A DNA stretch of 42,620 nucleotides from an uncultured Bacteroidales bacterium. Lineage in GTDB: Bacteria > Bacteroidota > Bacteroidia > Bacteroidales > F082. Every line of letters starts with the position of its first letter. Position 1 is the first letter of the stretch. A model generated the notes under the pieces. That model saw only the letters and a program-made list of their open reading frames with translations. It made no database searches and was not told the origin of the DNA. The translations under genes and the position numbers were made by a program. The DNA lies in contig CAMOCK010000045.1 of NCBI GenBank assembly GCA_946610645.1, forward strand, positions 1 to 42,620. The letters run 5' to 3'. This document shows, in pieces, positions 1 to 29,676 of this stretch.

Positions 1-57
1 AAGAGTTTACAATGCGAACAGTCGACGGTTGTAGGGAATTGGGCAAAATAATAAATG

Positions 58-96
58 AAAAAAAAAAAGAAGTAAGAAAAGTTCCCCCCCCCCCCC
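58..96. repeat. Adjacent homopolymer tracts: A11 (58-68) and C13 (84-96), ending 46 nt upstream of the first CDS
   Basis: Counted directly: gaaaaaaaaaaaga...gtt followed by 13 c then tcgg. Confidence 0.9.
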
Positions 97-141
97 TCGG
101 CACACTTAACTTATTCAGAGGTTGAGAGTAAGCGATTTGGA

Positions 142-858
142 TTGCGTATTTATCGTGGTCAATACGAGGAGTTTGACACGAAAGATGTTAATGACATCGT
201 GAACGGAAACAACTTTGACATTATCATTGTTCGTTACCCAACATCAACTATCTATGAGCATTATCGCCTTGTTTGTTTCAAGAATTGCAGAACCGTTCAC
301 GCCGATAGTCTTGTGTATTACTCCGCTCCTTTGCAAGAAATCGAGATTAAACCTCTTCGAAACGATTTGCAATTTGAGATCCTTACTGATAGCGTGGGAG
401 GTCAGCTTGGCTTTATGGTGAAATCGATTTTTTCGGGCTATCAGAACCATTATTATTCTGATCCTTGTCTGCCGAGACAAGCCATTGTTGACGGCTATTT
501 AGAGTGGGCGATGTCTTTCGCGAAGTCTGTCGACGATGGCGTTACGTGGATGATTAAGGATAGGACGACAAAAGCCAATGTGGCTTTTTTGGCTTGCTCG
601 TTTGATGAGCAGAAATCGGTGAGTGAGTTGAAATTGGGAGGGGTGATGCCCGAATACGAGGGACTTGGTATTTATTCGGACTTCGTCAGATATGCCCAAC
701 GGCATTTCAGAGAGATGGGGCTCCGCACATTGTTGACTTCTACTCAATTACAGAACGTGGCTGTTCAAAGGGCATGGCAAAAGCATGGATTCAGGTTTGA
801 TAAGTCATACGAGACTTACCATCTAATAAATAAGAATCTTTGGGATAGAGTGGCGTAA
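142..858 (+). CDS. GNAT-fold N-acetyltransferase, WecD/RffC-like (candidate dTDP-fucosamine acetyltransferase)
   Basis: 238-aa ORF with a TTG start as given by the ORF track, so the start is uncertain. C-terminal GNAT-like region GLGIYSDFVRYAQRHF...QNVAVQRAWQKHGFRF. The two-domain layout and the FSGYQNHYYSDP...YLEW segment resemble E. coli WecD as I remember it. A wecE-type gene lies in the same operon. Confidence 0.55.
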   Translation: MRIYRGQYEEFDTKDVNDIVNGNNFDIIIVRYPTSTIYEHYRLVCFKNCRTVHADSLVYYSAPLQEIEIKPLRNDLQFEILTDSVGGQLGFMVKSIFSGYQNHYYSDPCLPRQAIVDGYLEWAMSFAKSVDDGVTWMIKDRTTKANVAFLACSFDEQKSVSELKLGGVMPEYEGLGIYSDFVRYAQRHFREMGLRTLLTSTQLQNVAVQRAWQKHGFRFDKSYETYHLINKNLWDRVA

Positions 859-893
859 TAATGTTTTTTTTGTCATTTTATGATTGTCGTTTT

Positions 894-983
894 ATGACAA
901 AATCAATCCTGACCTACCTCGCCCTCGTCGGCGTGAACCTCGTCTATGCCTGCACGAGCATCTTTACAAAGAATGGATTTCGG
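894..983 (+). pseudogene. Truncated 5' fragment of an ArnE-like small membrane protein gene (relic copy of the start of the CDS at 2394)
   Basis: atgacaaaatcaatcctgacctacCTCGCCCTCGTCGGCGTgaacctcGTCTATGCCTGCACGagcatctt... aligns with 2394-2485. Peptide YLALVGVNLVYACTSIFTK versus YLALVGVNIVYACTGIFTK. The frame runs into a stop about 39 codons in. Confidence 0.7.
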
Positions 984-1007
984 CTGCAACTTGCATGTTC
1001 TTCCAAC

Positions 1008-1183
1008 AACTTTTGAAGATTTTTTCAGTAAGAATCGCAGATTTTTATGGTAACTTTTGAAGATTTTTCCGTGAAGAATCGGAGATTTTTTTCTGAACTT
1101 TTGAAGATTTTTCCGTGAAGAATCGGAGATTTTTTCCTGAACTTTTGAAGATTTTTCCGTAAAGAATCGGAGATTTTTCCTAC
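1008..1183. repeat. Four tandem copies of a 44-bp unit (AACTTTTGAAGATTTTTCCGTGAAGAATCGGAGATTTTTTCCTG), each built from two related ~22-bp halves
   Basis: Unit starts at 1008, 1052, 1096 and 1140. Copies 2 and 3 differ at one base and copy 1 is more diverged. The last copy runs into the TACCTTTG box. Confidence 0.95.
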
Positions 1184-1188
1184 CTTTG
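1181..1188 (+). promoter_or_regulatory. Bacteroidetes-type -7 promoter box TACCTTTG (TAnnTTTG) for the ATPase gene
   Basis: Exact match to the TAnnTTTG consensus, ending 21 nt upstream of the ATG at 1210. Confidence 0.45.
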
Positions 1189-1209
1189 CCGCCTCAAAAC
1201 AAATGAGTT

Positions 1210-2397
1210 ATGATTAGGCGTGAACAAAACGATAATCTTGTTTCGTGTATCAACGAACCCCGCCGCACCATTTTGGTTGTGGCAGGGCCGAGGCAGGTAG
1301 GGAAAACGACCATGGTGAAGCAGGTGCTGAAGGAAATCGACATGCCTTCGATGTTCTTCAACGCCGATGCGGTTCCCCCCGACGACAACACTTGGATTGC
1401 CGAGCGTTGGGAAGAGGCACGGGCCCAGCTCCGGTTCAACCAAAGCGGCGAGTTCCTGCTGGTGTTCGACGAAATCCACAAGATTGACAACTGGAGCGAG
1501 CAGGTGAAGAAGGAATGGGACGCCGACACCTTCAACGACGTGAATTTGAAGGTGGTCTTGCTCGGATCGTCGCGGCTATTGCTGAAGAAAGGGCTTACGG
1601 AATCGCTCGCAGGTCGTTTCGAGTTGCTGCCCATGACGCACTGGACGTTTCAGGAGATGCGCGATGCCTTTGGCTTCGACATCAACCAATACGTCTATTT
1701 CGGCGGCTATCCGGGCAGCGCGGCCTATCTGCCCAACGAGAGTCGTTGGAGACGGTATGTCCGCGAGTCGATTGTGGCACCCGCCATCGAGAAGGATGTG
1801 CTCCAAACCACCTATATCTACAAGCCAGCCTTGATGCATCAGCTGTTCCGTTTGGGTTGCGCTTATTCTGCCGAGTTGCTGTCGTACAACAAGATGCTCG
1901 GACAGTTGCAGGACGCAGGCAACGCCACCACGTTGGTCAATTACCTTGAGGTGCTTGGCGAGAGCAAGATGCTTATTGGATTGCAGAAATATGCCGTCGA
2001 CAAGTCGCGGAAATACCGTTCCATACCCAAGTTGCAGGTGTTCAACAATGCGTTGCTCACCGTGATGACGGACGGCATGACCTACGAGAAGGCCTATACG
2101 CATCCCACCTTGTGGGGGCGTTGGGTCGAGTCGGCGGTCGGTTGCTACCTTTTGGACAAGGCCGACGAGTTGGAATACCAGTTATATTATTGGAGAGAGA
2201 ACAACGAGGAAGTGGATTTCGTGATTGCCCGTGGCGAAAGCTTGGTTGCTATTGAGGTGAAGAGTGGCCGGAGGCAGAATAATACAGGTTTAGGTACTTT
2301 CCGCAACATGTATCACCCGCAGTATTCGTTGGTGGTGGGCGGCGAGGCCATGCCGTTGGAGAAGTTTTTTACGGGTAATTTGGGTAATTTGTTATGA
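1210..2397 (+). CDS. AAA+ superfamily ATPase with C-terminal DUF4143/endonuclease-like domain (COG1373-type)
   Basis: 395 aa. Walker A GPRQVGKTT, Walker B LLVFDEIHK, C-terminal EVDFVI...AIEVKSG motif typical of this family. Stop overlaps the next ATG (ATGA). Confidence 0.8.
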   Translation: MIRREQNDNLVSCINEPRRTILVVAGPRQVGKTTMVKQVLKEIDMPSMFFNADAVPPDDNTWIAERWEEARAQLRFNQSGEFLLVFDEIHKIDNWSEQVKKEWDADTFNDVNLKVVLLGSSRLLLKKGLTESLAGRFELLPMTHWTFQEMRDAFGFDINQYVYFGGYPGSAAYLPNESRWRRYVRESIVAPAIEKDVLQTTYIYKPALMHQLFRLGCAYSAELLSYNKMLGQLQDAGNATTLVNYLEVLGESKMLIGLQKYAVDKSRKYRSIPKLQVFNNALLTVMTDGMTYEKAYTHPTLWGRWVESAVGCYLLDKADELEYQLYYWRENNEEVDFVIARGESLVAIEVKSGRRQNNTGLGTFRNMYHPQYSLVVGGEAMPLEKFFTGNLGNLL

Positions 2398-2741
2398 CGT
2401 CAACGACCAAACCCTACAAAACCTATCTCGCCCTCGTCGGCGTCAACATTGTCTATGCCTGCACGGGCATCTTCACGAAGATGGCTTCGCGGCAGGAAAT
2501 GCTGTCGTGGCCTTACCTGCTATGGATGACAGGCGCGGTGGGCGTGATGGGCGTTTATGCCATCCTTTGGCAACAGGTGCTGAAGCGTGTGGAGTTATCT
2601 ACGGCATACATGTTCAAGGGCACGGGCATGATCTTTGGCTTGCTCATAGCCTGGCTCATTCTTGGCGAGCAAATCACCATAAACAACATGATAGGCGCAG
2701 CTATCATCATTGCGGGAATAGCCTTGTTTGCCAAGTCGTAA
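2394..2741 (+). CDS. Small 4-TM EamA/SMR-like membrane protein, ArnE-like (candidate undecaprenyl-phosphate-aminosugar flippase subunit)
   Basis: 115 aa and hydrophobic. The C-terminal half LWQQVLKRVELSTAYMFKG...GEQITINNMIGAAIIIAGIALF parallels E. coli ArnE as I remember it. It is paired with a second gene of similar size. Confidence 0.6.
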   Translation: MTSTTKPYKTYLALVGVNIVYACTGIFTKMASRQEMLSWPYLLWMTGAVGVMGVYAILWQQVLKRVELSTAYMFKGTGMIFGLLIAWLILGEQITINNMIGAAIIIAGIALFAKS

Positions 2742-2752
2742 ATTGGAACGGT

Positions 2753-3088
2753 ATGTTGTATTATATCCTTTGCCTTGTTTCGGTGTTTTCGGCAGCCTGC
2801 GCCCAGATGTTGCTCAAGCAGGCGGCGAGAAAACAATACCCTTCCTTTTTGCGGCAGTACCTGAATCCTTGGGTGATAAGCGGCTATGCCATCATGGGCT
2901 GCGGCCTGCTGCTCAACATCTATTGTTTGAGCAAGGGCGTGATGGTGAAGGAGCTGGGGGGCATCGAGTCGCTGAGCTACCTGTTTGTGCCTACGCTTTC
3001 GTGGCTGTGCTTCAAGGAAAGAATCACATGGCGCAAGGCAGGGGCCATCGCAGTGATTATGGTTGGGGTGGTGGTGTTTTTTGTTTGA
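2753..3088 (+). CDS. Small 4-TM EamA/SMR-like membrane protein, ArnF/ArnE-like partner subunit
   Basis: ATG at 2753 inside ORF 2507..3088, giving 111 aa. SAACAQMLLKQAA near the N-terminus resembles the ArnE GQLCQKQA region. The upstream part of the ORF overlaps the previous gene and is not hydrophobic. Confidence 0.6.
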   Translation: MLYYILCLVSVFSAACAQMLLKQAARKQYPSFLRQYLNPWVISGYAIMGCGLLLNIYCLSKGVMVKELGGIESLSYLFVPTLSWLCFKERITWRKAGAIAVIMVGVVVFFV

Positions 3089-3111
3089 AACCAAGAAGTA
3101 AAACTGAGTAT

Positions 3112-4641
3112 ATGGATATTCTGCAAAAAGTTAGGAATGTGTTTGACAAACATACATTTGTGTTTTTGTTGGCTGCCAATGTAGTGTTCTTTGCCTTGGT
3201 GGTGGCGGCGCTTCCGTTTGCTTTTGAGTTGGTGGATGATTGGCACATGGCGTGGATTACTTCTGGTTATCTTTCAGGTGAGCCTGATGCCCACACGCTT
3301 TTCATGAATTTTTTCTATGGTTGGCTATTGGTTGGGTTGTATGATGTTATGCCAAGCGTCGAGTGGTATTCCTGGCTGATGCTCGGCACCCATCTTGTCA
3401 GCCTAACCATCCTCGGAAAATGCATTGTGAAAAGCAAACATGGCAAAATCACGGAAGTGTTCTCGCTTTTGATACTCTATGTCGTTGAGATACGCTGTCT
3501 TGTGAATTTTGGGTTTACGACAACGGCTGGCATAGGGGCGACTGCCGCTCTGATGCTTATTGTCCATGAGCGGAAATATTGGCAAGGATGCCTTCTTTTC
3601 TTGATTGCCTCCATGGTGCGGTTCCATTCAGCCATGTTTTGTGGATTGTGTGTCGCAGCCATGTATCCTTTGATCATATTACGGCGGGGATTCTGTTGGC
3701 AACAATTGGTAGCGCTTGGCTTTTGTGCTTTTGCGGGGGGTGGGGTGAAATATGCCGACAAATTGGTTTACATGAGCGATCCGGAGTGGAAGGAAACGTA
3801 TGAATACAATGGCATAAGGGCCAAACTGTATGACAACAGCAACATTTGGAGGCTTTATTCTTCCGCCATCGTGAGCGAAGAGGATTTGAATTCATGGAGC
3901 GGTGGAATGGATGTGGATTGGCCAGTTGAAAGATTGGAGTCGTGTTTGGGTTACATTGAAAAGGAAACTTCCTGGCATGGCATACCTGGGCTGAAGAAAG
4001 TGAAAAACATTCCACGTGAGTTGGCCTTTTTTTGGCCTTGGCTTTTAATGCTTGCGTTTGTTTTCATCGGCAGCGCGCTGAATTGCAATAGCCGTAAGGA
4101 AATGGGATTGTTGATGATAGGGGTAATCGCAATGCCATTGGCGTTGGCGTTGGTTTCACTGAACACAAGGCTTAATGAAAGGGCTTTCTTGTGTGGGTGG
4201 ATACCTTGTGTGTTGCTGCTTGTCATCCTCGTTCCGGTGAAAAGGCATAGGTTTTGGCTATCTTTGGCGGCCCTACTTGCGCTTGCGTATGTGATTGTGA
4301 AAATGCCCTCAAGCCATCCGCGAATGATATACCGCAAGCAAAAGGAAATGGTGGATTGCGGCCAACGGCATGGCGCGGAATGTCTTATTACAAAGGTTGA
4401 TGCCGTCACATATCCCTTTGGAATCAGGCCTTTCCTTTATACGACATTGATTCAAACGTCGGATGTCACCAAGGAAATGCTCGACGAAGGAGCTTGTGTG
4501 GCATTGCTGAAGAATGAGAGCAGCCAAGAGGATTCTTTGACAATCAAGGAACAGATGGGCGACAAACTTGGCGTTGACATTGAGACCATCGAGTTGTGCA
4601 GCAACGACGCTTATGTTCTTGTCCGTCTGTCAAATAAATAG
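3112..4641 (+). CDS. Polytopic membrane protein with acidic first-loop motif (ELVDDW); candidate GT-C-type periplasmic glycosyltransferase or polymerase
   Basis: ATG at 3112 inside ORF 2728..4641, giving 509 aa. Many hydrophobic spans. The VDDWHM motif follows TM1 and is shared with the CDS at 5776 (SDDWTM). C-terminal soluble tail. Confidence 0.6.
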   Translation: MDILQKVRNVFDKHTFVFLLAANVVFFALVVAALPFAFELVDDWHMAWITSGYLSGEPDAHTLFMNFFYGWLLVGLYDVMPSVEWYSWLMLGTHLVSLTILGKCIVKSKHGKITEVFSLLILYVVEIRCLVNFGFTTTAGIGATAALMLIVHERKYWQGCLLFLIASMVRFHSAMFCGLCVAAMYPLIILRRGFCWQQLVALGFCAFAGGGVKYADKLVYMSDPEWKETYEYNGIRAKLYDNSNIWRLYSSAIVSEEDLNSWSGGMDVDWPVERLESCLGYIEKETSWHGIPGLKKVKNIPRELAFFWPWLLMLAFVFIGSALNCNSRKEMGLLMIGVIAMPLALALVSLNTRLNERAFLCGWIPCVLLLVILVPVKRHRFWLSLAALLALAYVIVKMPSSHPRMIYRKQKEMVDCGQRHGAECLITKVDAVTYPFGIRPFLYTTLIQTSDVTKEMLDEGACVALLKNESSQEDSLTIKEQMGDKLGVDIETIELCSNDAYVLVRLSNK

Positions 4642-4646
4642 TTATC

Positions 4647-5762
4647 ATGCACATTCCATTCAACCTCCCTCATCTCACGGGCAAGGAAGCCCACTACATG
4701 TACCAAGCCGTGTATGACGGCAAATTGAGCGGCAACGGCGTGTTCACCAAGCGTTGCCAACGCTTCTTCGAGGAGAAATACGGTTTCAGGAAATGCCTGC
4801 TCACCACGAGTTGCACCGATGCGCTCGAAATGGCAGCTATGCTTTGCGGAATTCAACCTGGCGACGAAGTCATCGTACCGAGCTATACTTTTGTGTCGTC
4901 GGCGTTGGCGTTTGTGCGCGCTGGGGCAAAGATTGTCTTTGCCGACAGCATGAAGCGTAATCCCAACATTGATGCTGAACAAATTGAGGCACTGATAACG
5001 CCAAGGACGAAAGTCATTGTTCCAGTGCATTATGCGGGTGTGGCCTGCGACATGGACCGCATAATGGAGATTGCCGAGAAGCATCATCTTTTGGTGGTTG
5101 AGGATGCCGCGCAAGCCATCGATTCATACTACAAAGGCCGTCCGTTGGGTACGATAGGCCATCTGTCGGCCTTCTCGTTCCACGAGACGAAGAACATCAT
5201 ATCGGGCGAAGGCGGAATGCTTGGCATCAATGACGAGCGTTTCGTCCGCCGTGCCGAGATCATTTGGGAAAAAGGCACCAACCGTGCCGAGTTTTTCCGT
5301 GGCGAGGTGAACAAATACGGCTGGTGCGACATCGGTTCGTCTTTTCTCCCGAGCGAGGTGGTTGCGGCTTTCCTTTGGGCTCAGCTTGAAGCGTTGGACG
5401 ATATCCAAACCAAGCGCAAAAGCCTGTGGAATAAGTATTACGAGCTATTGAAGCCTATGGCCGAGCAGGGCTGCTTCCGTTTGCCCGACATTCCAGACTA
5501 TGCCACCAACAATGCGCACATGTTCTATCTGGTGTGTAACAGCCTTGCCGAGCGCACAGCTTTGATCAAAAAGTTGAAAGACAACGATATATTGGCCGTG
5601 TTCCATTACCTGAGCCTTCACAGCAGCGAGTATTACAAAGGCAAGCACGACGGACGGCAACTGCCCGAATGCGACCGCTACGCCGATTGTTTGGTGCGGC
5701 TGCCGATGTATTATGAGTTGGGATTGGAAGATGTGGAGAGGATTTGCGCATCATATTATTAA
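4647..5762 (+). CDS. wecE: dTDP-4-amino-4,6-dideoxygalactose transaminase (WecE/RffA type, DegT family, PLP-dependent)
   Basis: 371 aa. Near-collinear resemblance to E. coli WecE as I remember it: IPFN.P...GKL.G.G.FT.RCQ, PSYTFVS, VPVHYAGVACDMD, VVEDAAQ, FSFHETKN (PLP lysine), EKGTNR..FFRG.V.KY.W.DIGSS, AHMFY, VFHY.PLH. Confidence 0.85.
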   Translation: MHIPFNLPHLTGKEAHYMYQAVYDGKLSGNGVFTKRCQRFFEEKYGFRKCLLTTSCTDALEMAAMLCGIQPGDEVIVPSYTFVSSALAFVRAGAKIVFADSMKRNPNIDAEQIEALITPRTKVIVPVHYAGVACDMDRIMEIAEKHHLLVVEDAAQAIDSYYKGRPLGTIGHLSAFSFHETKNIISGEGGMLGINDERFVRRAEIIWEKGTNRAEFFRGEVNKYGWCDIGSSFLPSEVVAAFLWAQLEALDDIQTKRKSLWNKYYELLKPMAEQGCFRLPDIPDYATNNAHMFYLVCNSLAERTALIKKLKDNDILAVFHYLSLHSSEYYKGKHDGRQLPECDRYADCLVRLPMYYELGLEDVERICASYY

Positions 5763-5775
5763 AGGTTTTTGTTAT

Positions 5776-7398
5776 ATGGAAAAGGGAAAGGTAATTGAAA
5801 TTGTCGCTTTTGTAGCGGTGATGGTAATGGTGGTAGTGTTTTTCATCATTAGCCGAAGTGGTTTTTTTGTGAGCGACGATTGGACAATGGGACTAGGTAT
5901 TAAATCAATAAATGATGTTTTCAACGAAACATTTCATTTTGTTCTCAATGTAAGTGGAAGGTTGTTTGCTACATTTGTGCAGTATCTGTTCTGTGGATTT
6001 CTGGGAGGGAACAAACTATGGTTTGATGCCGTCAATACGTTGTTTTTTTGCGCTTTAATCATAATAAGTGGTTGCCTTTTGTCAGAGGGAGGAATACAAT
6101 GGAAAAGAATATTATTGTTTGCATTGGTTTTCTGGTTCGTTTGTCCTGCTCCCGATGAAGCCCTTTTTTGGGTCGCAGGAGCTACAGTTTATTTCTGGAC
6201 TTCAACATTGACATTGTTGTTTATTAAGGTTTTCATGTGGAGCAAGAATAAAGAGTTGTCATTGGGTGCTGAAATCATATTGTTCGTGTTTTCGATGATA
6301 TGTGCAAGTGAGATGATATCAGCCACAGCAGTTTGTGGAGCCATTGTGCTTATTGGCATTTTTAATTGGAAAAACCTGAAAAGAAATGAGCTTGTTTTGG
6401 CTGTTGGTTTTCTGTTAGGAACACTTGTTTTGTTGTTTAGTCCTGGTAATTTTGCGAGGATGGATTCGGGGGCAGACGGGTTTATGTTGTCTAGATACCT
6501 GGAAAATATGTTTTCGCCATCTCGTTTGTTGGTAGAGATTGTCAAGTATAAGGCATTATGGGCGTTTGTTGTGACTTGGTGTGTTTCTATGGTGGTAAAG
6601 AAGAAAGAGACTGTTGAATGGAGTAAAAAAAATCTTTTTTTGGTGTTGACTCTATTTATTTCAGTTGTTTCGGTCAGTTTTTTATATTCAGGGTACGTTT
6701 CCTCAAAACGCTCCTTGTTGTTTCCTGAGATTTTGTCGATAATACTTATGATGAGTTTGGTCGTACCATATTTCAATAGCAAATTGTTGGACGGTTTTTT
6801 GAGCAAAGCGGGAAGTGCTTTTTTTGTTCTGCTATTTGTATTGTTCATGGTGGACGCGTATCATGCCGTTGGAGAGACAAAAAGGCAGAGTCGTATCAAC
6901 GACGAGTTGCTCGCAGAGATTAAGGATGCCGGAGGAATTGTTGCGGTAGATGTTCCTCAATCTTCTCATAGGATGGCATTCGCCTCTTCTTTCCCTCGGT
7001 GGGCGTGGAAAGGAATGGCTCAAAAGATGGGTCTTGATTCGGTACATATTTATCCGTTTTATTGCCAAGACAAGTATTATGAGGAACCGCTACGATTTGC
7101 TGAAAACATATATATTGACAAGTTGGGATTGTATGATTCGCATGGTCTTGTGGTGATACGCTGTCAAGAAGCAGATTCATTACAGGGTTATGTTTGCCAT
7201 ATCGACTATGATAGACCAAAGAAATGGTATAAGGCATGGTTGGACAAGTTTAGGAATTATCAATACCGGCGTTCTGTGGAAGTGGGCCTTGGAATCCCAG
7301 ATTGTTGTCATGGAAGATACTGTTACCATGTCATATATATGGATAAAGAGAATTGCAAAGGCATTAAACATATTGAGATTGCCGAAGAAAAGTTGTAA
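5776..7398 (+). CDS. Polytopic membrane protein with SDDW first-loop motif and soluble C-terminal domain (DUF6056-like or GT-C-like, function unassigned)
   Basis: ATG at 5776 inside ORF 5713..7398, giving 540 aa. About 10 or more hydrophobic spans followed by a roughly 170-aa hydrophilic tail. AT-rich codon usage. Confidence 0.6.
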   Translation: MEKGKVIEIVAFVAVMVMVVVFFIISRSGFFVSDDWTMGLGIKSINDVFNETFHFVLNVSGRLFATFVQYLFCGFLGGNKLWFDAVNTLFFCALIIISGCLLSEGGIQWKRILLFALVFWFVCPAPDEALFWVAGATVYFWTSTLTLLFIKVFMWSKNKELSLGAEIILFVFSMICASEMISATAVCGAIVLIGIFNWKNLKRNELVLAVGFLLGTLVLLFSPGNFARMDSGADGFMLSRYLENMFSPSRLLVEIVKYKALWAFVVTWCVSMVVKKKETVEWSKKNLFLVLTLFISVVSVSFLYSGYVSSKRSLLFPEILSIILMMSLVVPYFNSKLLDGFLSKAGSAFFVLLFVLFMVDAYHAVGETKRQSRINDELLAEIKDAGGIVAVDVPQSSHRMAFASSFPRWAWKGMAQKMGLDSVHIYPFYCQDKYYEEPLRFAENIYIDKLGLYDSHGLVVIRCQEADSLQGYVCHIDYDRPKKWYKAWLDKFRNYQYRRSVEVGLGIPDCCHGRYCYHVIYMDKENCKGIKHIEIAEEKL

Positions 7399-7409
7399 GT
7401 GATAATTAA

Positions 7410-8021
7410 ATGAATTGGAATAGGATAGTAAGGTTTTTTAGGACGCGCCGAGTGAAGAAGGGTTTGGTTGTGTATCGTCCTTGTATGTGTTGCATACATC
7501 CACAAGCAAAGGTTGAGATTAAAGGCCGTTTGGATTTTAATTGCCAATGGGATGATGATAGGATAAGGAGGAATAAAAAGGTGGGGTCTTTATTTATGGA
7601 TCAAGATGCGTTTCTGAAGGCGGATGCTTTTGTTGTTTACTCTGGATGCAGTATTTCAATTGAAAAGGGCGCATTATTGTCATTGGGAAGTGGCTACATG
7701 AATTATGATTGCGTCATTAGTTGCTTTTCATCCATTACCATCGGTAATGATGTCGCTATTTCGGAACGTGTGGTGTTGCGGGATTCTGATAACCATTCGA
7801 TTAGTTATGATGATGGAAGAAAGACGAATGTAGAATCTGAACCGATTGTTATTGAAGATCATGTTTGGATTGGTATGAATGCGACAGTGCTTAAAGGTGT
7901 GACGATAGGTGAGGGTTCGGTGGTAGCAGCAGGCAGCTTGGTAAACAAGGATGTCCCGTCGCATTGCATGGTTGCAGGTGTGCCTGCCAAAGTGATTAGG
8001 ACAAATATTACATGGAGCTGA
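7410..8021 (+). CDS. Left-handed beta-helix (hexapeptide-repeat) O-acetyltransferase, LacA/WbbJ-like
   Basis: 203 aa. DHVWIGMNATVLKGVTIGEGSVVAAGSLVNKDVPSHCMVAGVPAKVIR hexapeptide region. Paralog of the CDS at 10869. Confidence 0.85.
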   Translation: MNWNRIVRFFRTRRVKKGLVVYRPCMCCIHPQAKVEIKGRLDFNCQWDDDRIRRNKKVGSLFMDQDAFLKADAFVVYSGCSISIEKGALLSLGSGYMNYDCVISCFSSITIGNDVAISERVVLRDSDNHSISYDDGRKTNVESEPIVIEDHVWIGMNATVLKGVTIGEGSVVAAGSLVNKDVPSHCMVAGVPAKVIRTNITWS

Positions 8022-8074
8022 GACAAAACGCCATTGTCAAGTAATGATGCTTTAGATTTTAACTCATTTGTATA

Positions 8075-8509
8075 ATGACTGTAAAGACGGACTGGTCAGG
8101 GGGTGGCTCCATGGTCGATAGGATTGGGCTTTTCATTGGAAAGCGATCGGTAAGGGAATTCTTTCGTTTCTGTATTGTGGGGACATTATCCACTGGAATT
8201 CATTACGGAATTTATCTGTTGCTTTTGAAGTGGATAAGTGTGAATGTAGCCTATTCGGCAGGCTATGTGGTTAGTTTGGGTTGCAATCTTTTGATGACCT
8301 CGTTTTTCACTTTCCGTGAAAGAATTACTTGGAAAAAGGCGACTGGCTTTTTGGTCAGTCATGGGGTGAATTACATTTTGCATATCTTGTTTTTGAACCT
8401 GTTTTTGCGGTTGGGAATAGTTGAACGTTGGGCACCTATTCCTGTTTATTGCATTGTGGTTCCGATTAATTTTATTTTGGTGAGAACCGCTTTTAAGAAA
8501 CTGAAATGA
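8075..8509 (+). CDS. GtrA-family membrane protein (polyprenyl-phosphate-sugar translocation)
   Basis: 144 aa (132 aa if the ATG at 8111 is used). FFRFCIVGTLSTGIHYGIYLLLL N-terminal signature, 4 TM. Stop overlaps the start of the GtrB-like gene. Confidence 0.8.
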   Translation: MTVKTDWSGGGSMVDRIGLFIGKRSVREFFRFCIVGTLSTGIHYGIYLLLLKWISVNVAYSAGYVVSLGCNLLMTSFFTFRERITWKKATGFLVSHGVNYILHILFLNLFLRLGIVERWAPIPVYCIVVPINFILVRTAFKKLK

Positions 8510-9441
8510 CAATGAAGACAATCAGTATTTTGGTGCCTTGCTATAATGAGGCAAAATCCTTGGCTCTTCTGTTTGACGAATTGAATCGTGTCATATCACA
8601 AATGGATATGTACAATTGGGAAGTTCTGTTTGTGAATGATGGTAGTCGAGACAATACGATGGAGGTGATACGTGACCTACGGAGAAAGGATTCCCGTGTG
8701 TCGTATGTGGATTTGAGCCGTAATTTTGGAAAAGAGAACGCCATGTTGGCCGGATTTGACTATGCCAAAGGTGACGCTGTGATTATCATGGATGCCGATT
8801 TACAGCATCCGCCGGCGGTGATACCCGACATGATTCAAAAATGGGAAGAAGGTTATGATGATGTTTATGCGCAACGCAAGGCAAGAGGCAAGGAATCTTG
8901 GCTTCGGAAAAAACTAACCAAATTGTATTATAAGATGTTGCAGGGCAGTTCGCGCATGGACGTGCTCCCCAATGTGGGAGATTTCCGACTGCTTGACAGG
9001 AAATGCGTAGATGCCTTGTGCCAGATGAGGGAATCGGGTCGCTATACGAAAGGTATGTACTGCTTTATAGGATTCAGGAAGATAGGTGTCGAGTTTGAGA
9101 CTCAAGATAGGGTTGCTGGCGAGTCGAGCATGAGTTATCGCAAACTGGCTAATCTTGCTTTGGAAGGAATAACTTCCTATACCACGGCACCATTGCGTTG
9201 GGCCACTTTTATTGGAATAGTTGTTTCTGTTACAGCTTTTGTCTATATGCTTTTTGTATTGATCAAGGCTTTGTTGTATGGGGATCCTGTCGCGGGTTAT
9301 CCTACCCTGCTTGTAATTATACTTTTCTTAGGAGGCATACAGTTGTTCACCATAGGAATCATAGGAGAATACCTAGGGAAGGTGTTCGTGGAAGCGAAAA
9401 ACAGACCTGTTTATTTTGTTAGGGAATATAACGAAAAATGA
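8506..9441 (+). CDS. GT2 polyprenyl-phosphate glycosyltransferase (GtrB/ArnC-like) with two C-terminal TM helices
   Basis: 311 aa. ISILVPCYNE, VNDGSRDNT, MDADLQHPP, then hydrophobic C-terminal helices and IGEYLG. This is the architecture of GtrB/ArnC/DPM1-type enzymes. Confidence 0.85.
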   Translation: MTMKTISILVPCYNEAKSLALLFDELNRVISQMDMYNWEVLFVNDGSRDNTMEVIRDLRRKDSRVSYVDLSRNFGKENAMLAGFDYAKGDAVIIMDADLQHPPAVIPDMIQKWEEGYDDVYAQRKARGKESWLRKKLTKLYYKMLQGSSRMDVLPNVGDFRLLDRKCVDALCQMRESGRYTKGMYCFIGFRKIGVEFETQDRVAGESSMSYRKLANLALEGITSYTTAPLRWATFIGIVVSVTAFVYMLFVLIKALLYGDPVAGYPTLLVIILFLGGIQLFTIGIIGEYLGKVFVEAKNRPVYFVREYNEK

Positions 9442-10703
9442 TTGTGTATATGGATGAGACTTTCAGATTTGTTGCATTGAAAAACTCGAGGATAGGGGCT
9501 CTCTTGTCAAGTTATAAGATGCCCATAATGTTGGTGTTATTGTTCATCCCTCAATTGGTGCAGATGGTGACGTTCTCATTAGGTGATATTACAAGCATAT
9601 ATCATAATTATTATTTCGTGGGTTATGAAACTGGGTTCGGTGGTCGCAAATTACTCGGAACGATTTTTGGCTGGTTTTTCTCAGGGTATGTAGGGCATGG
9701 GAAATTGTTACCGGTGATATGGGGGATAAATGCTGTTTTTATTGGACTACTTTGTTGGTTGTTTCAAGAGTGCAAAAGTGGTTTCAATGGGAAAGGGAAC
9801 TTCGCCATTGCGTTGATTGTTGTTGTGTGGATGGTGTCTCCGTTTTCGATTCTTCGTTATGTTAGGGATGGAATGAGCGTTCAATACATCGATATCTATA
9901 ATATGTCGTTGACATTGGTTTTTGTGTTGTTGTTTCTTTATCGTAGAGGAAGGGTTTCATATTATTTGTGTACATTGCTAATTGCTTTGGCAGGCATTCT
10001 GATACACCATGTTTTTCTTTTCCTGTTTTTCCCTTTGTTTTTATCCTTGTTTATTTATGATTGTTGGGATGGACACCGTGTCAATATAGTGAAATCGCTA
10101 TGGTATGGTGTCATTTTGTTGTTGGTTGTATTTGTGGTTGCTGCAATTTGGCGGTTTGGTCACATGAATATAGGATTAGATTCGCTCTATTCCAGCATTG
10201 TTGACCGGACTCCATCTGGTATTATCAAAAGAGATGGAGGATACGCATTGAACATTTTGTATTATGCTTCTCAAGAAGAAAATATAGCATCCAATGCGGA
10301 GATATTGCCGATAATGTATAGAATCCATTTGCCTGTTACAATTTTAGTGATGATACCAATGCTATTGCTTTTATGGGCTCCGTTTTTGTTGGCGATGAAT
10401 TCCTGTAGTGGTGGAGCGAGATGGCGCTATTTTTTTGTTTGGGCTTCATCTGCATTTGGCACATTGCCTGTTTTCTTCATTGCAATAGACTATGGACGTT
10501 GGCTTTATTCCTATTTCTTTGTTCAAGTGATACTGCTTATAGTGCTATCTCAGCTTAAAGATTCGGTTTTTGCTCGGGGGGTGGGCGTTTTTGGGAAATG
10601 GTTAAGAAATCATCCTTGTTTGGTGGCAATGATTATTATATATATGGCTTCTTTGGCTGCTTCTCATGTGTTTGGCCTTCCTATTGTGTCCAAGAACAAC
10701 TGA
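9438..10703 (+). CDS. Polytopic membrane protein (candidate GtrC-type acceptor-specific transferase or polymerase; unassigned)
   Basis: 421 aa, highly hydrophobic throughout. ATGA-coupled to the GtrB-like gene, which is the position of the serotype-specific transferase in gtrABC-type modules. Confidence 0.55.
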   Translation: MIVYMDETFRFVALKNSRIGALLSSYKMPIMLVLLFIPQLVQMVTFSLGDITSIYHNYYFVGYETGFGGRKLLGTIFGWFFSGYVGHGKLLPVIWGINAVFIGLLCWLFQECKSGFNGKGNFAIALIVVVWMVSPFSILRYVRDGMSVQYIDIYNMSLTLVFVLLFLYRRGRVSYYLCTLLIALAGILIHHVFLFLFFPLFLSLFIYDCWDGHRVNIVKSLWYGVILLLVVFVVAAIWRFGHMNIGLDSLYSSIVDRTPSGIIKRDGGYALNILYYASQEENIASNAEILPIMYRIHLPVTILVMIPMLLLLWAPFLLAMNSCSGGARWRYFFVWASSAFGTLPVFFIAIDYGRWLYSYFFVQVILLIVLSQLKDSVFARGVGVFGKWLRNHPCLVAMIIIYMASLAASHVFGLPIVSKNN

Positions 10704-10868
10704 TTTAGGATAACAGAATTGCCAGGAAACATGGTTCTCGCTTGCTAATCTTGTGGGTACATGGTGCCCAAAGAGGTTTTACTCGAAATTACAACTGGCA
10801 ATGGGAAAGAATGGGAAGTTAGAGATGTTGGATTTGGGAGTGAATTGTTGTAAAACCTATATTGCATC

Positions 10869-11492
10869 ATGAACATTACCGATAAAGTGTTGCGTTTCCT
10901 TTGCACTAAGCATTTCACCAGAAAAGGAATCAGGGTTTATAAGCCTTGTATGTATTATGTGCATCCCAAAGCCAATGTGAAGATTGATAATTACTTGAAT
11001 TTCAATAGGCAGTGGGATAGAAAAATGATTTGGAAAAACAAATTGTCAGGTTCCTTGTTTGTGTGTGAAAAGGCACGATTGGAGGTTGATGCTTTTGATG
11101 TGTATGCAGGAAGTCGGATTAATGTTAATGCAGGTGCCGAATTAGTGCTTGGTAGCGGATACATGAACCATGATTGCGTAATAGATTGTTTTTCATCTAT
11201 TCGGATAGGTCAAAATGTGGTTATTTCTGAGCGGGTGGTGATTAGGGATTCCGATAATCATTTCATCACATGGAGAGGAGGCAATTGTAATGAAGATAAA
11301 CCTATGTCCGCCCCAATCGTAATCGGTGATCATGTATGGATTGGAATGAATGTTATTGTTTTGAAAGGAGTAACAATTGACGAAGGCGCGGTGGTGTCAG
11401 CTGGCAGCGTGGTGACCAAGGATGTGCCGCCTCATAGTTTGGTGGCAGGTGTACCTGCAAAGGTAGTAAAAACAGATGTTGAATGGAACTAA
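10869..11492 (+). CDS. Hexapeptide-repeat O-acetyltransferase, paralog of 7410..8021
   Basis: 207 aa. DHVWIGMNVIVLKGVTIDEGAVVSAGSVVTKDVPPHSLVAGVPAKVVK. The N-terminal halves also align (LGSGYMN.DCVI.CFSSI.IG..V.ISERVV.RDSDNH). Confidence 0.85.
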   Translation: MNITDKVLRFLCTKHFTRKGIRVYKPCMYYVHPKANVKIDNYLNFNRQWDRKMIWKNKLSGSLFVCEKARLEVDAFDVYAGSRINVNAGAELVLGSGYMNHDCVIDCFSSIRIGQNVVISERVVIRDSDNHFITWRGGNCNEDKPMSAPIVIGDHVWIGMNVIVLKGVTIDEGAVVSAGSVVTKDVPPHSLVAGVPAKVVKTDVEWN

Positions 11493-13323: not shown

Positions 13324-13329
13324 GCAATC

Positions 13330-14232: not shown

Positions 14233-14244
14233 GGCAAAAAAACT

Positions 14245-14252
14245 TATTTTTG
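14245..14252 (+). promoter_or_regulatory. TAnnTTTG -7 box (TATTTTTG) upstream of the ATPase/nuclease gene
   Basis: Exact consensus match ending 20 nt before the ATG at 14273, inside the only 40-nt gap in this part of the operon. Confidence 0.4.
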
Positions 14253-14272
14253 CACATCGAAACAGGAAAACC

Positions 14273-15874: not shown

Positions 15875-15880
15875 ACCACA

Positions 15881-16840: not shown

Positions 16841-16937
16841 TAGTTTGTCAGTTGTCGTATTCGGCATATAATTGGTATATGTATTGTACGCCGAGGCATC
16901 AACGATTGGATTGATAAAAACGAATAGAGTAAAACCA

Positions 16938-20906: not shown

Positions 20907-21626
20907 ATGATACCCAAAACAATTCATTACTGCTGGTTTGGACGAGGCGAAATGCCTGAGATGGCTAAGAATTGCATTGCCTCGTGGCACAAGTATATGC
21001 CCGATTGGGAATACAAGCTTTGGAACGAGGACAATTTCGACGTGAACCAAACTCACTACACCAAAGAGGCATACGAAGCCAAGAAATTCGCCTTCGTGAG
21101 CGACTATGTTAGGCTTTGGGCATTGCACAATGAAGGAGGCTTGTACTTAGATACGGATGTTGAGGTGTTTAAGGCTTTTGACGATTTGCTTGGAAATCAT
21201 GCTTTTGCAGGATTCGAGGGAAGCAAGCATGTTCCCGTCGGGACTTGCGTGATGGCAAGTGTGGCCAACGGCGAGTGGGTGAAAGAACAGCTCGGTCATT
21301 ATCAAGGCAGGCATTTCGTCCTTCCCGACGGCTCGTTTGACATGACCACCAACGTGCAGTTCATCACCGCCAAGATGCGAGAAAACGGTTTCGTCCAAGA
21401 CGGCAAGGAGCAAAACTACAAAGACTTGCATGTTTTCCCAACCGACTATTTTTGTCCGCGCCAAACCACGGGCGAATATTTCCGTACAGAAAACACTTAT
21501 TGCGACCATCTTGGTATGGGTTCGTGGGCTGAACAGAGCAACGGGTGGAAAACCAAGATTGCCAGTTTTGTCGGGAAGAAGAACATGGCACGTCTGATAA
21601 AGTTGAAAAGAAAACTAATTGGTTAA
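20907..21626 (+). CDS. Glycosyltransferase family 32 (Och1/Caps_synth-like, DXD)
   Basis: ATG at 20907; the ORF track begins at a TTG at 20892. MIPKTIHYCWFG...SW.KYMPDWEYKLWNE...FVSDYVRLWAL...GGLYLDTDVE. Confidence 0.8.
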   Translation: MIPKTIHYCWFGRGEMPEMAKNCIASWHKYMPDWEYKLWNEDNFDVNQTHYTKEAYEAKKFAFVSDYVRLWALHNEGGLYLDTDVEVFKAFDDLLGNHAFAGFEGSKHVPVGTCVMASVANGEWVKEQLGHYQGRHFVLPDGSFDMTTNVQFITAKMRENGFVQDGKEQNYKDLHVFPTDYFCPRQTTGEYFRTENTYCDHLGMGSWAEQSNGWKTKIASFVGKKNMARLIKLKRKLIG

Positions 21627-21636
21627 GTCCGATACG

Positions 21637-23031: not shown

Positions 23032-23053
23032 TTTTCAAAAAGACAAAAGAACA

Positions 23054-27403: not shown

Positions 27404-27440
27404 ATTGAAAGTGAAATAGTTATATGAATTGGTATTTTTA

Positions 27441-27527: not shown

Positions 27528-27547
27528 TTTAATTTTCATGGTTACTT

Positions 27548-29655: not shown

Positions 29656-29676
29656 CTGTCAGTAATATTGTTGTTT

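Follow-up and report, generated by a model that had tools for sequence, protein, structure and literature searches.

The window, by which we mean the whole 42,620-nucleotide stretch of Bacteroidales DNA analyzed here, contains many GT2 and GT4 Leloir glycosyltransferases within a Wza/Wzc/CpsB polysaccharide locus. An initial annotation had proposed that the genes near its 5′ end form one lipid-carrier glycosylation pathway, and all of the genes it listed were recovered at the positions and on the strand given. We group them below into an Arn-like cassette A, consisting of the EamA pair (2394-3088), P1 and WecE, and a Gtr-like cassette B, consisting of GtrA, GtrB and P3 (8075-10703). The relevant features are:

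1..48, + strand: 3′ end of a WecD-like GNAT gene, cut by the window edge (frame 1 reads ...KSLQCEQSTVVGNWAK followed by two stops)
142..858, + strand: GNAT acetyltransferase, 238 aa (Pfam Acetyltransf_1, 28 bits; WecD, 20.7 bits, cut-off 219)
1210..2397, + strand: AAA_14/DUF4143 ATPase (Pfam), between the GNAT gene and the EamA pair
2394..2741, + strand: EamA1, half-size DMT/EamA membrane protein, 115 aa (Pfam EamA, 42.9 bits, cut-off 28.2; NCBIfam ArnE, 29.9 bits, cut-off 92)
2753..3088, + strand: EamA2, half-size EamA-like protein, 111 aa (Pfam EamA, 27.6 bits, just under the same cut-off; ArnE, 25.1 bits)
3112..4641, + strand: P1, polytopic GT-C-fold protein, 509 aa (AF2 model and Foldseek), DD motif at residues 42-43 (nt 3235-3240)
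4647..5762, + strand: WecE-type dTDP-4-keto-6-deoxyhexose 4-aminotransferase (NF008687, 562 bits, cut-off 375; TIGR02379, 516 bits, cut-off 434.85)
5776..7398, + strand: P2, polytopic GtrC-type predicted transferase, 540 aa (PF19528/DUF6056, 144 bits, E 6e-42)
7410..8021, + strand: AcT1, hexapeptide-repeat acetyltransferase flanking cassette B, 57% identical paralog of AcT2
8075..8509, + strand: GtrA-family small membrane protein, candidate Und-P-sugar flippase (PF04138, 59 bits)
8506..9441, + strand: GtrB-type polyprenyl-phosphate GT2 with C-terminal TM helices (GT2, 129 bits; full-length PgfS, 307 bits, and ArnC, 190 bits)
9438..10703, + strand: P3, polytopic, 421 aa, third gene of cassette B ('GtrC position'), with a start that overlaps the GtrB stop by 4 nt
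10869..11492, + strand: AcT2, hexapeptide acetyltransferase with an ortholog in the allelic locus L014
11483..12493, + strand: Acyl_transf_3 membrane O-acyltransferase (PF01757, 72.6 bits)
21619..24457, + strand: two tandem PMT_2 (ArnT/PMT-type GT-C) paralogs, 70% identical to each other (PF13231, 33.3 and 30.9 bits, cut-off 26.1)

At the 5′ edge, the fragment at 1-48 is a diverged allele of positions 3580-4350 of the near-identical contig L001, where the complete GNAT matches WecD along the entire profile (87 bits, residues 2-224); the first ~100 nt of the window are far more diverged from L001 than the remainder of the aligned 17.4 kb. The GNAT at 142-858, which is 21% identical to this L001 protein (GNAT256) and missing from L014, appears from its sequence to be a distant paralog of the upstream enzyme and is possibly a second N-acyltransferase. 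Its GNAT assignment stood, but the WecD-like label it had been given is weak because its WecD score lies so far below the cut-off. The ATPase gene at 1210-2397, which had not been annotated previously, is an inserted gene outside the glycosylation machinery and is also absent in L014. The stretch upstream of it has a second, 53-bp copy of the EamA1 5′ end (912-964) and, at 1008-1187, tandem repeats of 44 bp.

Profile searches with P1 gave no match in Pfam or NCBIfam. Its AF2 model (pLDDT 91.8, pTM 0.92) was compared with the PDB using Foldseek, which revealed that the top 11 matches are all GT-C proteins, with ArnT (5f15) first (E 5e-4, prob 1.0), followed by ALG9 (TMq 0.48) and then DPY19, Pmt4 and EmbC, supporting the assignment of P1 as a predicted GT-C-fold glycosyltransferase. 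The P1 family comprises 4431 clusters at E<=1e-3, and D42, D43, E84, T136 and R170 do not vary among 53 of its sequences. As the DD pair directly follows TM1 and the K/R-rich loops KSKHGK, HERK and RRG lie on the opposite side, these five residues are placed in the periplasm, with the acidic motif in the first periplasmic loop as had been anticipated. P2 scores above the Pfam family threshold for PF19528 (DUF6056), currently named GT_STM0557_N, and belongs to the family of Salmonella GtrC (STM0557). The two proteins had been proposed to share a (V/S)DDW(H/T)M motif. The positions were correct, with DDW encoded at 3235-3243 inside VDDWHM (3232-3249) of P1 and SDDWTM at 5872-5889 of P2 (DD at residues 34-35, nt 5875-5880), and the DD pair is invariant in the 53 P1-family sequences as well as in 31 P2-family sequences, both consensuses reading DDxxM. 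The W, however, is conserved in neither family, and profile-profile comparison found no homology between the two, so that the common motif is a functional-site resemblance and not evidence of common descent.

P1-family membrane enzymes are almost always encoded beside an enzyme that makes a 4-amino-6-deoxy sugar. In all eight independent contexts looked up singly, a P1-family gene is accompanied by a WecE gene whose product is 69-93% identical to that of the window. A motif scan of P1-family loci other than the window that span 8 kb or more found WecE in 16/17, the exception (L043) having none within 7 kb. Of these 17 loci, 14 contain a GtrB/ArnC-type GT2, with no recognisable GT2 in the other three, 13 encode an enzyme for N-acylation (WecD-like GNAT, formyltransferase, WbqC or ATP-grasp) and 6 have a pair of EamA genes, while GtrA and DUF6056 occur in none. 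WecE lies within 150 nt of the P1-family gene in 17 of the 23 WecE-bearing loci. The 40 loci scanned include near-duplicates, and these counts thus overstate independence somewhat. The EamA pair stands beside WecE in the window, L006, L007, L010 and L014, and is also present in 9/40 further P1-family loci. This recurrent linkage strengthens the earlier proposal that a 4-amino-4,6-dideoxyhexose is tied to lipid-carrier machinery.

The donor sugars, acceptor and enzymatic steps that we infer for cassette A are as follows. WecE, whose assignment as a transaminase held, would convert dTDP-4-keto-6-deoxyglucose into a dTDP-4-amino-4,6-dideoxyhexose, predicted to be Fuc4N from the NCBIfam equivalog, with the gluco form as an alternative. 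A WecD-like GNAT may then N-acylate the amino sugar, with its main copy encoded directly before the window start and perhaps a second one at 142-858, and a GtrB/ArnC-type GT2 of the WecE-linked clade, also encoded upstream, would load the sugar onto Und-P. EamA1 and EamA2 (29% identical), candidate subunits of an ArnE/ArnF-like Und-P-sugar flippase, may flip the lipid-linked sugar, and P1 would transfer it to a periplasmic acceptor, most likely the polysaccharide built by the remainder of the Wza/Wzc locus. Judged from L001, cassette A's own GT2 and its better WecD-like GNAT would lie just upstream of the window edge; contrary to what had been claimed, the set of parts inside the window is incomplete.

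Cassette B appears to be independent of cassette A. Its three genes are joined by 4-nt ATGA overlaps, its GC3 is 0.40-0.47 versus 0.65-0.72 for EamA1, EamA2 and WecE, and the allelic loci L014 and L007 have no AcT1-GtrA-GtrB-P3. The window GtrB, with hydrophobic segments at residues 228-290 and a 361-bit match to the PHROG 'GtrB-like', is 80% and 60% identical to GtrA-linked GT2s of L016 and L015, respectively, and the window GtrA is 58% identical to the GtrA of both. The GtrB-type assignment was thus upheld, but clustering groups the enzyme with GtrA-linked GtrBs and outside the WecE-linked clades, not in the WecE route where it had been placed. Both of the flippase types noted earlier, the EamA pair and GtrA, are present. 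GtrB would load a sugar, presumably a hexose or HexNAc, onto Und-P, GtrA would flip it, P3 and/or P2 may act as the transferase, and the flanking acetyltransferases may add O-acetyl groups. AcT1 was not part of the initial annotation. Relatives of P2 adjoin either cassette type, occurring with GtrA-GtrB in L015 and L016, with WecE and the EamA pair in L014, and with WecE in L007. A PHROG with fused GtrB and DUF6056-like parts also exists.

Of the three polytopic proteins initially put forward as transferases, P1 and P2 were supported by fold and by Pfam family, respectively, while P3 was not. P3 has no family match in profile searches, and its AF2 model (pLDDT 90.4) gave no significant fold match, the best TM scores being the weak ones to PglB and AglB (0.30-0.34). 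It may not be a glycosyltransferase at all, being instead, for example, a Wzy-type polymerase or other membrane protein that follows gtrB by chance. Neither Wzx nor Wzy could be recognised in any part of the window, which would leave room for such a role, and homologs of P3 are encoded away from GtrAB, flanked by Wzm and Wzt within an ABC-transporter locus and beside PorP/SprF genes; a locus of the ABC-transporter type, however, would not be expected to encode a Wzy. P3, whose start overlaps the gtrB stop by 4 nt, takes the place of gtrC in a gtrA-gtrB-gtrC arrangement, its post-TM1 loop contains a pair of short helices along with an acidic position that is conserved, as in GT-C enzymes (E64; E in 35/40, D in 3/40), its best-scoring structures, although weak, are themselves PglB and AglB, and hhalign weakly matched it to the P2 family at a GGR motif common to both (prob 33%, E 4e-4). 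R70, K71, H190, H191, D351 and R354 are likewise conserved. We regard a non-transferase role for P3 as rather unlikely.

The arrangement of the genes, all on one strand within 10.6 kb and with short gaps, together with the lack of any further polyprenyl-phosphate GT2 inside the window, fits the single pathway originally proposed, in which the GT2 at 8506-9441 loads Fuc4N(Ac) onto Und-P, the two kinds of flippase carry it across, and each of P1, P2 and P3 draws on it. We consider this highly improbable, as L014 and L007 retain the EamA pair and WecE without GtrA, GtrB or P3, GtrA is missing from all 17 large P1-family loci scanned, the L016 GT2 with 80% identity to the window GtrB belongs to a stand-alone DUF6056-GtrA-GtrB cluster, and a different GT2 is encoded upstream in L001 (sharing 86% identity with the L014 equivalent and 63% with that of L011). 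It is also quite unlikely that WecE and the GNAT instead feed dTDP-Fuc4NAc to a cytoplasmic Leloir glycosyltransferase building the repeat unit, with P1 and the other GT-C proteins using an unrelated Und-P sugar such as a hexose and adjacency reflecting co-inheritance. To our knowledge, drawn also from reviews, synthesis of ECA through WecF is the sole documented use of dTDP-Fuc4NAc, GtrB/ArnC-type enzymes are known with UDP-sugars, and the window is rich in Leloir enzymes, all of which would suit cytoplasmic use. The WecE-P1 adjacency nonetheless persists among P1 proteins that share just 25-35% identity and across widely differing contexts, including a gene run outside capsule loci in which the glycosyltransferases found are only a GtrB/ArnC-type GT2 and a P1-family protein. 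In addition, the N-acylating enzyme varies (GNAT, formyltransferase, ATP-grasp or a LuxE/LuxC set) while WecE, GT2 and P1 stay constant, as expected if all act on one sugar. It is unlikely that cassette A acts on lipid A, LPS core or a glycoprotein rather than on capsule or EPS, which would make it a true functional analog of Arn that might affect antimicrobial-peptide resistance. The cassettes of Prevotella sp. 10(H) and L011 lie outside polysaccharide loci and adjoin an outer-membrane barrel-like gene, ArnT is the top structural match of P1, and the formyltransferase variant copies Arn logic, but cassette A of the window is embedded in the Wza/Wzc/CpsB locus, and no ArnD-like deacylase that would expose a cationic amine was found among 10 ORFs sampled. 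Allelic loci, moreover, differ in GT-C content, with P1 present or absent and P2 36-50% identical, versus 92-93% for WecE; serotype-specific GtrC enzymes acting on polysaccharide vary in the same way.

Taken together, our analysis suggests that this polysaccharide locus of a gut or rumen Bacteroidales probably holds two separate gene sets for loading sugars onto Und-P, flipping them and attaching them outside the cytoplasm. That they are parts of two independent Und-P-sugar systems decorating a glycan there, cassette A and cassette B, is the reading we hold to be fairly likely. The central idea of the initial annotation, periplasmic Und-P-sugar-dependent glycosylation, is well supported by the P1 fold, the P2 family and the conserved neighbourhoods; its union of all the genes into one route is not, since GtrA-GtrB-P3 is a separate cassette missing in allelic loci.

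Our literature search returned no description of a route in which a 4-amino-4,6-dideoxyhexose is carried on Und-P, and, as far as keyword searches show, no enzyme of the GtrB/ArnC type is known to act on a dTDP-sugar. STM0557, after which the P2 family is named, belongs to the gtr operon of Salmonella (STM0557-0559), which adds glucose to O-antigen (PMC3688519). For cassette A, the parallel with Arn is incomplete, as the sampled ORFs included no ArnD-like deacylase. ArnE is the top NCBIfam match of the EamA pair, which upholds the likeness to the ArnE/ArnF flippase noted initially, yet both proteins score far below the ArnE/ArnF equivalog cut-offs. A resemblance to Arn is seen in Prevotella sp. 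10(H), where consecutive genes for a GT2, a formyltransferase, a P1-family protein and WecE, followed by two DUF6044 genes and situated outside any capsule locus, mirror ArnC, the ArnA formyltransferase domain, ArnT and ArnB.

Between positions 142 and 10703 every gene of the window lies on the forward strand, with short gaps or overlaps between neighbours:

Genes of 142-10703 (coordinates, strand, assignment)
142-858, +, GNAT238: GNAT
1210-2397, +, ATPase: AAA_14/DUF4143 ATPase (HMM search)
2394-2741, +, EamA1: EamA-type, 115 aa; ArnE is the best NCBIfam match, far under cut-off
2753-3088, +, EamA2: EamA-type, 111 aa; ArnE is the best NCBIfam match, far under cut-off
3112-4641, +, P1: polytopic, 509 aa; without family match
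4647-5762, +, WecE: NF008687 562 bits (cut-off 375)
5776-7398, +, P2: 540 aa; PF19528/DUF6056, E 6e-42
7410-8021, +, AcT1: hexapeptide acetyltransferase
8075-8509, +, GtrA: PF04138
8506-9441, +, GtrB: GtrB/ArnC-type GT2; PgfS 307 bits, ArnC 190 bits, PHROG 'GtrB-like' 361 bits
9438-10703, +, P3: polytopic, 421 aa; without family match

The initial annotation had joined these genes into a single undecaprenyl phosphate (Und-P)-sugar pathway around dTDP-Fuc4N(Ac). Our analysis divides them into an Arn-like cassette A (EamA1, EamA2, P1 and WecE) and a Gtr-like cassette B (GtrA, GtrB and P3). The transaminase at the head of the proposed pathway stands as a WecE-family enzyme, since it passes the equivalog TIGR02379 (516 bits, cut-off 434.85) as well as NF008687, scores that do not tell a galacto from a gluco product. 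The WecD likeness proposed for GNAT238 is weak, as this protein reaches 20.7 bits against a cut-off of 219 in a match limited to residues 161-221. The ArnE/ArnF-like pair holds insofar as there are two adjacent half-size (~110-aa) DMT/EamA genes, separated by 11 nt and encoding proteins that are 29% identical, of which EamA1 passes Pfam EamA (42.9 bits) and EamA2 falls slightly under the cut-off of 28.2 (27.6 bits). However, both miss the equivalog cut-offs for ArnE (29.9 and 25.1 bits against 92) and ArnF (17.3 and 16.5 bits against 99).

Contig L001, which is 99.85% identical to positions 15-17398 of the window, extends beyond the window start and encodes there, in order, a 565-aa polytopic protein, a 311-aa GT2 and a GNAT. 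The GNAT matches the WecD profile over its full length at 87 bits, likewise under the cut-off of 219. The GT2 matches ArnC at 189 bits; its identity is only 32% to the window's GtrB, and 86%, 63% and 52% to the GT2 enzymes in loci L014, L011 and L012, respectively. The window opens with 48 nt that code for the C-terminal end of a diverged WecD-like GNAT, and its first ~100 nt are far more diverged from L001 than the remaining aligned part. From the sequence of L001 we infer an upstream GT2 and WecD-like GNAT for this genome as well. In both L001 (954-2651) and the allelic locus L014 (4884-6572), the gene for a polytopic protein of 562-565 aa runs into the start of the WecE-linked GT2. No family match was found for this protein, and the CDEGYY motif that follows its first transmembrane (TM) helix is one we take to resemble the DExxY of ArnT; it may be an additional GT-C enzyme of cassette A.

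The start of the window has further irregularities. Immediately upstream of GNAT238, within 55-145, are an A11 tract (58-68) and a C13 tract (84-96). The sole available start of GNAT238 is a TTG; the WecD-like N-terminal motif SEVESKRFGLRIYRG begins upstream of that TTG, and in L001 the upstream GNAT open reading frame runs through the same C13 tract. The tracts could reflect slipped-strand phase variation, gene fusion or decay, or a homopolymer assembly error. A 53-bp copy of the EamA1 5' region (912-964, 90.6% identical) is followed by a 44-bp tandem repeat of 4.1 copies (1008-1187), and the stop codon of the ATPase gene overlaps the start of EamA1. The ATPase block occupies the same place in the second allelic locus, L007 (90% nucleotide identity), and is missing from L014. 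Together these features suggest that the gene (859-2397 region) was inserted into the 5' end of EamA1.

The candidate transferase of cassette A, P1, has no Pfam or NCBIfam match, and a profile search against PDB chain sequences returned no GT-C match. Its AF2 model (pLDDT 91.8, pTM 0.92) has ~12 long helices followed by a C-terminal alpha/beta domain, concordant with the hydropathy profile and within the ~7-13 TM helices of GT-C enzymes. When the model was compared with the PDB using Foldseek, the best 11 matches were all GT-C enzymes with moderate TM scores, among them ArnT (5f15; E 5e-4, prob 1.00, TMq 0.41) and ALG9 (TMq 0.48), the remainder being DPY19, Pmt4, EmbC, EmbA/B, Pmt1/2 and GPI mannosyltransferase I. 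The DDW motifs noted in the initial annotation are where it placed them, VDDWHM of P1 at 3232-3249 and SDDWTM of P2 at 5872-5889. In an alignment of 53 P1-family sequences D42, D43, E84, T136 and R170 are invariant. The positive-inside rule puts the 34-84 loop of P1 in the periplasm together with every invariant polar residue, because the helix order of the model and the K/R-rich loops KSKHGK, HERK and RRG place the opposite side in the cytoplasm. The predicted topology of D42/D43 therefore agrees with the earlier proposal of a GT-C enzyme with acidic residues in its first extracytoplasmic loop after TM1. Membership of GT83 or GT39 does not follow, as P1 matches no ArnT, PMT or PMT_2 profile, 0/53 family members match PMT or PMT_2, and the same 53 show no consistent Pfam match, with scattered weak hits to TgpA_N and DUF6057 only. 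On the strength of the fold matches and the placement of the motif we take P1 to act like ArnT-type enzymes, and predict that it is a GT-C enzyme, ArnT-like in its working, outside the ArnT sequence families.

A full profile search assigned 4431 clusters to the P1 family at E<=1e-3 and 2271 at E<=1e-10, far more than the five clusters returned by a word-indexed search. Members that carry a name are all annotated 'hypothetical protein' and come from Prevotella sp. 10(H), Prevotellaceae or Bacteroidales. To place the family in its genomic setting, members were looked up singly and metagenome contigs were then scanned; a first scan gave no loci, and a second, using the motif FQFTTTA, gave 40, some of them near-duplicates, so that the following counts are not fully independent. 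A scan of GTDB species genomes with a small P1 alignment gave one 3.5-kb Paludibacteraceae contig only.

Genes found in P1-family loci (loci of at least 8 kb; all loci)
WecE, 69-91% identical to the window's: 16/17; 23/40
GtrB/ArnC-type GT2: 14/17; 19/40
N-acylating enzyme (WecD-like GNAT, formyltransferase, WbqC or ATP-grasp): 13/17; 16/40
EamA pair: 6/17; 9/40
GtrA: 0/17; 0/40
DUF6056: 0/17; 0/40

The initial annotation had suggested checking the gene neighbourhood, and around P1-family genes it is conserved: WecE accompanies them in nearly all of the longer loci, and in 17 of the 23 WecE-bearing loci the two genes are at most 150 nt apart. The GT2 found in 14 of the 17 longer loci is indirect evidence that P1 would take its sugar from a polyprenyl phosphate. 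Outside a capsule locus, Prevotella sp. 10(H) has a GT2, a formyltransferase, a P1-family gene and WecE in consecutive order, followed by two DUF6044 genes. ATP-grasp ligases stand in place of the GNAT or formyltransferase in L035, L043, L048, L049 and L052, as does a LuxE/LuxC set in L006, L026 and L036, with an AMP-ligase also in L006 and L036. These replacements suggest that the N-acyl group on the same amino sugar varies between P1-family loci. A search of 10 unassigned open reading frames from these loci found no ArnD-like deacylase. A membrane protein of ~380-400 aa also recurs (L020 1382-2575; L031 2990-4150; L032 6411-7544; L039 13518-14729 and 14828-16006); two copies scanned had no Pfam match, and an SD(L/M)x(D/A)H..(A/I)(R/Q)E stretch is conserved after the first TM helix.

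The GtrA and GtrB/ArnC-like assignments of the initial annotation are sound. GtrA passes PF04138 (59.1 bits, cut-off 26.1), and GtrB has a GT2 domain (129 bits), full-length matches to PgfS (residues 6-309) and ArnC (3-307), and hydrophobic segments at 228-290 corresponding to C-terminal TM helices; it lies under the equivalog cut-offs (500 and 529), so that the family fits and the match scores leave its sugar specificity unassigned. What does not survive is the single pathway. L014 encodes, in order, the 565-family protein, a GT2, a WecD-like GNAT, EamA1, EamA2, WecE (92% identical to the window's), a DUF6056 protein (50% identical to P2), an acetyltransferase, the Acyl_transf_3 protein AT3 (11483-12493 in the window) and two GT2s, and lacks GNAT238, the ATPase, P1, AcT1, GtrA, GtrB and P3. 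L007, which has two P1 paralogs, lacks everything from AcT1 through AT3. In a neighbour-joining tree of the GT2s (no bootstrap), most WecE- or P1-linked enzymes form one clade and a few, mainly from ATP-grasp loci, a second, while the window's GtrB falls with GtrA-linked enzymes; it is 80% identical to the GT2 of L016, a stand-alone DUF6056-GtrA-GtrB cluster, and 60% identical to that of L015. The GtrA-GtrB-P3 block, whose genes share 4-nt ATGA overlaps, is bracketed by AcT1 and a second acetyltransferase, AcT2 (10869-11492), which are 57% identical, and recombination between them could have inserted it. GC3 is 0.39-0.48 for GNAT238 and for P2 through AT3, 0.54 for P1, and 0.65-0.72 for EamA1, EamA2, WecE and the next two GT2 genes. 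Conserved genes alternate with variable ones in this mosaic region, and cassette B is an ordinary Gtr-type side-chain system, with predicted catalytic steps, separate from cassette A.

P2 and P3 differ in how far they can be assigned. P2 belongs to the family of the Salmonella GtrC protein STM0557, matching PF19528 (DUF6056, named GT_STM0557_N in newer Pfam data) over residues 10-425 at 144.3 bits against a cut-off of 27; all 39 of its homologs carry PF19528, and the DD pair is invariant in the family. In Salmonella, the gtr operon STM0557-0559 serves to glucosylate O-antigen galactose (PMC3688519). P2 and gtrA have an acetyltransferase gene between them in the window. Relatives of P2 adjoin GtrA-GtrB in L015 and L016, and occur without GtrAB in L014, with WecE, the EamA pair and the WecE-linked GT2, and in L007, with WecE alone. 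The profile phrog_34335 (825 positions) matches GtrB at positions 3-303 and P2 at 322-579, which indicates that natural fusions of GtrB with a DUF6056-like GtrC exist. P3 is confidently modelled (AF2, pLDDT 90.4), and Foldseek against the PDB gave no match with E<0.4 (best TM scores 0.30-0.34, to PglB/AglB, prob 0.2-0.44). No match to P3 was found among viral structures (BFVD), and sequence searches of PDB chains with P2 or P3 returned nothing relevant. In P3, TM1 is followed by a loop that has two short helices and an acidic residue that is conserved; RK, HH and D..R are invariant. Relatives of P3 lie in an ABC-transporter locus or beside PorP/SprF genes, there without GtrAB. P3 is a candidate transferase for cassette B, mainly through its position and its translational coupling with gtrB.

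That the polytopic proteins are instead Wzx flippases or Wzy polymerases was the alternative raised by the initial annotation. Neither P1 nor P2 matches a Polysacc_synt/MOP or O-antigen polymerase/ligase family in Pfam or NCBIfam, and the ligase WaaL stands at rank 21 (prob 0.13) in the P1 fold list, so this identity was rejected for both. P3 likewise has no Wzx/Wzy family match, but Wzy families are very diverse and P3 could still be one. We also rejected paralogy of the two DDW proteins: hhalign detected no relation between P1 and P2 with thin and then deeper profiles, and gave probabilities of 20% for P1 with P3 and, weakly, 33% for P2 with P3.

Elsewhere the window is a polysaccharide locus that encodes numerous GT2 and GT4 enzymes together with a pyruvyl transferase, FemAB-like and fatty-acid-type genes, and Wza, Wzc and CpsB:

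35008-35799, Wza
35818-38322, Wzc
38319-39050, CpsB phosphatase

Within 1-42620 we recognised neither a Wzx flippase nor a Wzy polymerase nor an initiating phosphoglycosyl transferase; these genes may lie upstream or be among the unassigned membrane proteins. Two tandem PMT_2 (ArnT/PMT-type GT-C) genes, 70% identical, occupy 21619-24457 and together with P1, P2 and possibly P3 bring the window to four or five candidate lipid-carrier-dependent transferases. The block at 25386-34165 holds two FemAB/Acetyltransf_6 genes, a DegT aminotransferase, a DUF354 protein, a hexapeptide acetyltransferase, FabD-, FabG- and FabH-like genes and a polysaccharide deacetylase. The content of this block suggests machinery that serves an acylated or aminoacylated amino sugar. 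Amid glycosyltransferase genes at 14273-15874 there is another AAA-type ATPase gene (AAA_22/AAA_35), whose GC3 is very high at 0.81.

Taken together, the best reading of cassette A is an Arn-like Und-P route for a 4-amino-4,6-dideoxyhexose, of which we infer each catalytic step. The WecE-derived sugar would be N-acylated and carried on Und-P, the EamA pair would flip the lipid-linked amino sugar across the membrane, and P1 would transfer it to an acceptor. In the window this acceptor is probably the locus's own polysaccharide, because the cassette lies inside the locus and the GT-C genes vary between alleles, where the WecE and EamA genes are 76-93% identical. More broadly, we give an even chance to the proposal that the P1 family is an unrecognised GT-C family that moves N-acylated 4-amino-4,6-dideoxyhexoses from undecaprenyl phosphate to envelope glycans, with a new, dTDP-sugar-derived class of donor and a modular N-acyl group. 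The family would then number thousands of sequence clusters, most of them, in the sampling so far, from Bacteroidota, and would be served by a dedicated clade of GtrB/ArnC-type enzymes that makes the lipid-linked donor from a dTDP-sugar, and the N-acyl group would be exchanged among acetyl (GNAT), formyl (formyltransferase), aminoacyl (ATP-grasp) and fatty acyl (LuxE/LuxC/AMP-ligase). If so, a large unnamed membrane-protein family annotated 'hypothetical' gains a function, and part of the surface-antigen diversity of gut and rumen Bacteroidales, which drives phage and immune interactions, would be explained. A P1-family gene adjoining WecE and a GtrB/ArnC-type GT2 offers a gene signature for finding such decorations. 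As single sugars on Und-P, glucose, GlcNAc, Ara4N, GalN, GlcN and pentofuranoses are known donors for glycan decoration in the periplasm; 4-amino-4,6-dideoxyhexoses would join these donors as a new class and, to our knowledge, as the first fed by a dTDP-sugar. A literature keyword search found no report of an Und-P-Fuc4N route or of P1's GT-C family.

Cassette A parallels part by part the Arn system of Enterobacteria and Pseudomonas (ArnB, ArnA, ArnC, ArnD, ArnE/F and ArnT), which adds Ara4N to lipid A. WecE, a DegT-family 4-aminotransferase, corresponds to ArnB; the new amine would be N-acylated by a GNAT or formyltransferase, as by the formyltransferase domain of ArnA; the cassette A GT2s match ArnC over their full length (189-201 bits); the two neighbouring half-size EamA proteins recall ArnE/ArnF; and ArnT is the closest structural match of the GT-C transferase. 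The Prevotella sp. 10(H) run follows ArnC, the ArnA formyltransferase domain, ArnT and ArnB gene for gene. Cassette A differs from Arn in its precursor, a dTDP-6-deoxyhexose rather than a UDP-pentose, in a transferase without sequence match to the ArnT, PMT and PMT_2 families, in the lack of an ArnD-like deacylase among the 10 open reading frames searched, in EamA and GT2 scores far under the Arn equivalog cut-offs, and in its likely acceptor, capsule or EPS in the window versus lipid A. Cassette B resembles the Gtr systems by which Salmonella, Shigella and their phages glucosylate O-antigen, with GtrA and GtrB in the classical order and a polytopic protein third, and a Gtr likeness extends to P2 and to the stand-alone DUF6056-GtrA-GtrB cluster of L016. 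Unlike those systems, its third gene lies outside known GtrC families, and it is found inside a Bacteroidales polysaccharide locus, not on a prophage.

Polyprenyl phosphate also carries amino sugars in Francisella (FlmF2/FlmK/NaxD), Bordetella (LgmA-C) and Mycobacterium (PpgS/Rv3779), where an N-acetylated amino sugar is attached to the carrier by an ArnC-like GT2 and passed on outside the cytoplasm by a GT-C enzyme. Cassette A shares this logic of an ArnC-like GT2 with a GT-C enzyme; these routes use UDP-GalNAc or UDP-GlcNAc and include a deacetylase, and we know of no 4-amino-4,6-dideoxyhexose and no P1-type transferase in any of them. Closest among published concepts are the three-component pentofuranose side-chain systems that founded GT136 (Kelly et al. 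2024; PMC11127046), in which a monosaccharide on a lipid carrier serves as donor, a small flippase moves it, and a GT-C enzyme from a new family modifies the finished polysaccharide in the periplasm; associated genes add variety to the sugar. In those systems a UbiA-like synthase makes the donor from PRPP and a MATE protein flips it, whereas the donor of cassette A would come from a nucleotide amino sugar via a GtrB/ArnC-type GT2 and be flipped by the EamA pair.
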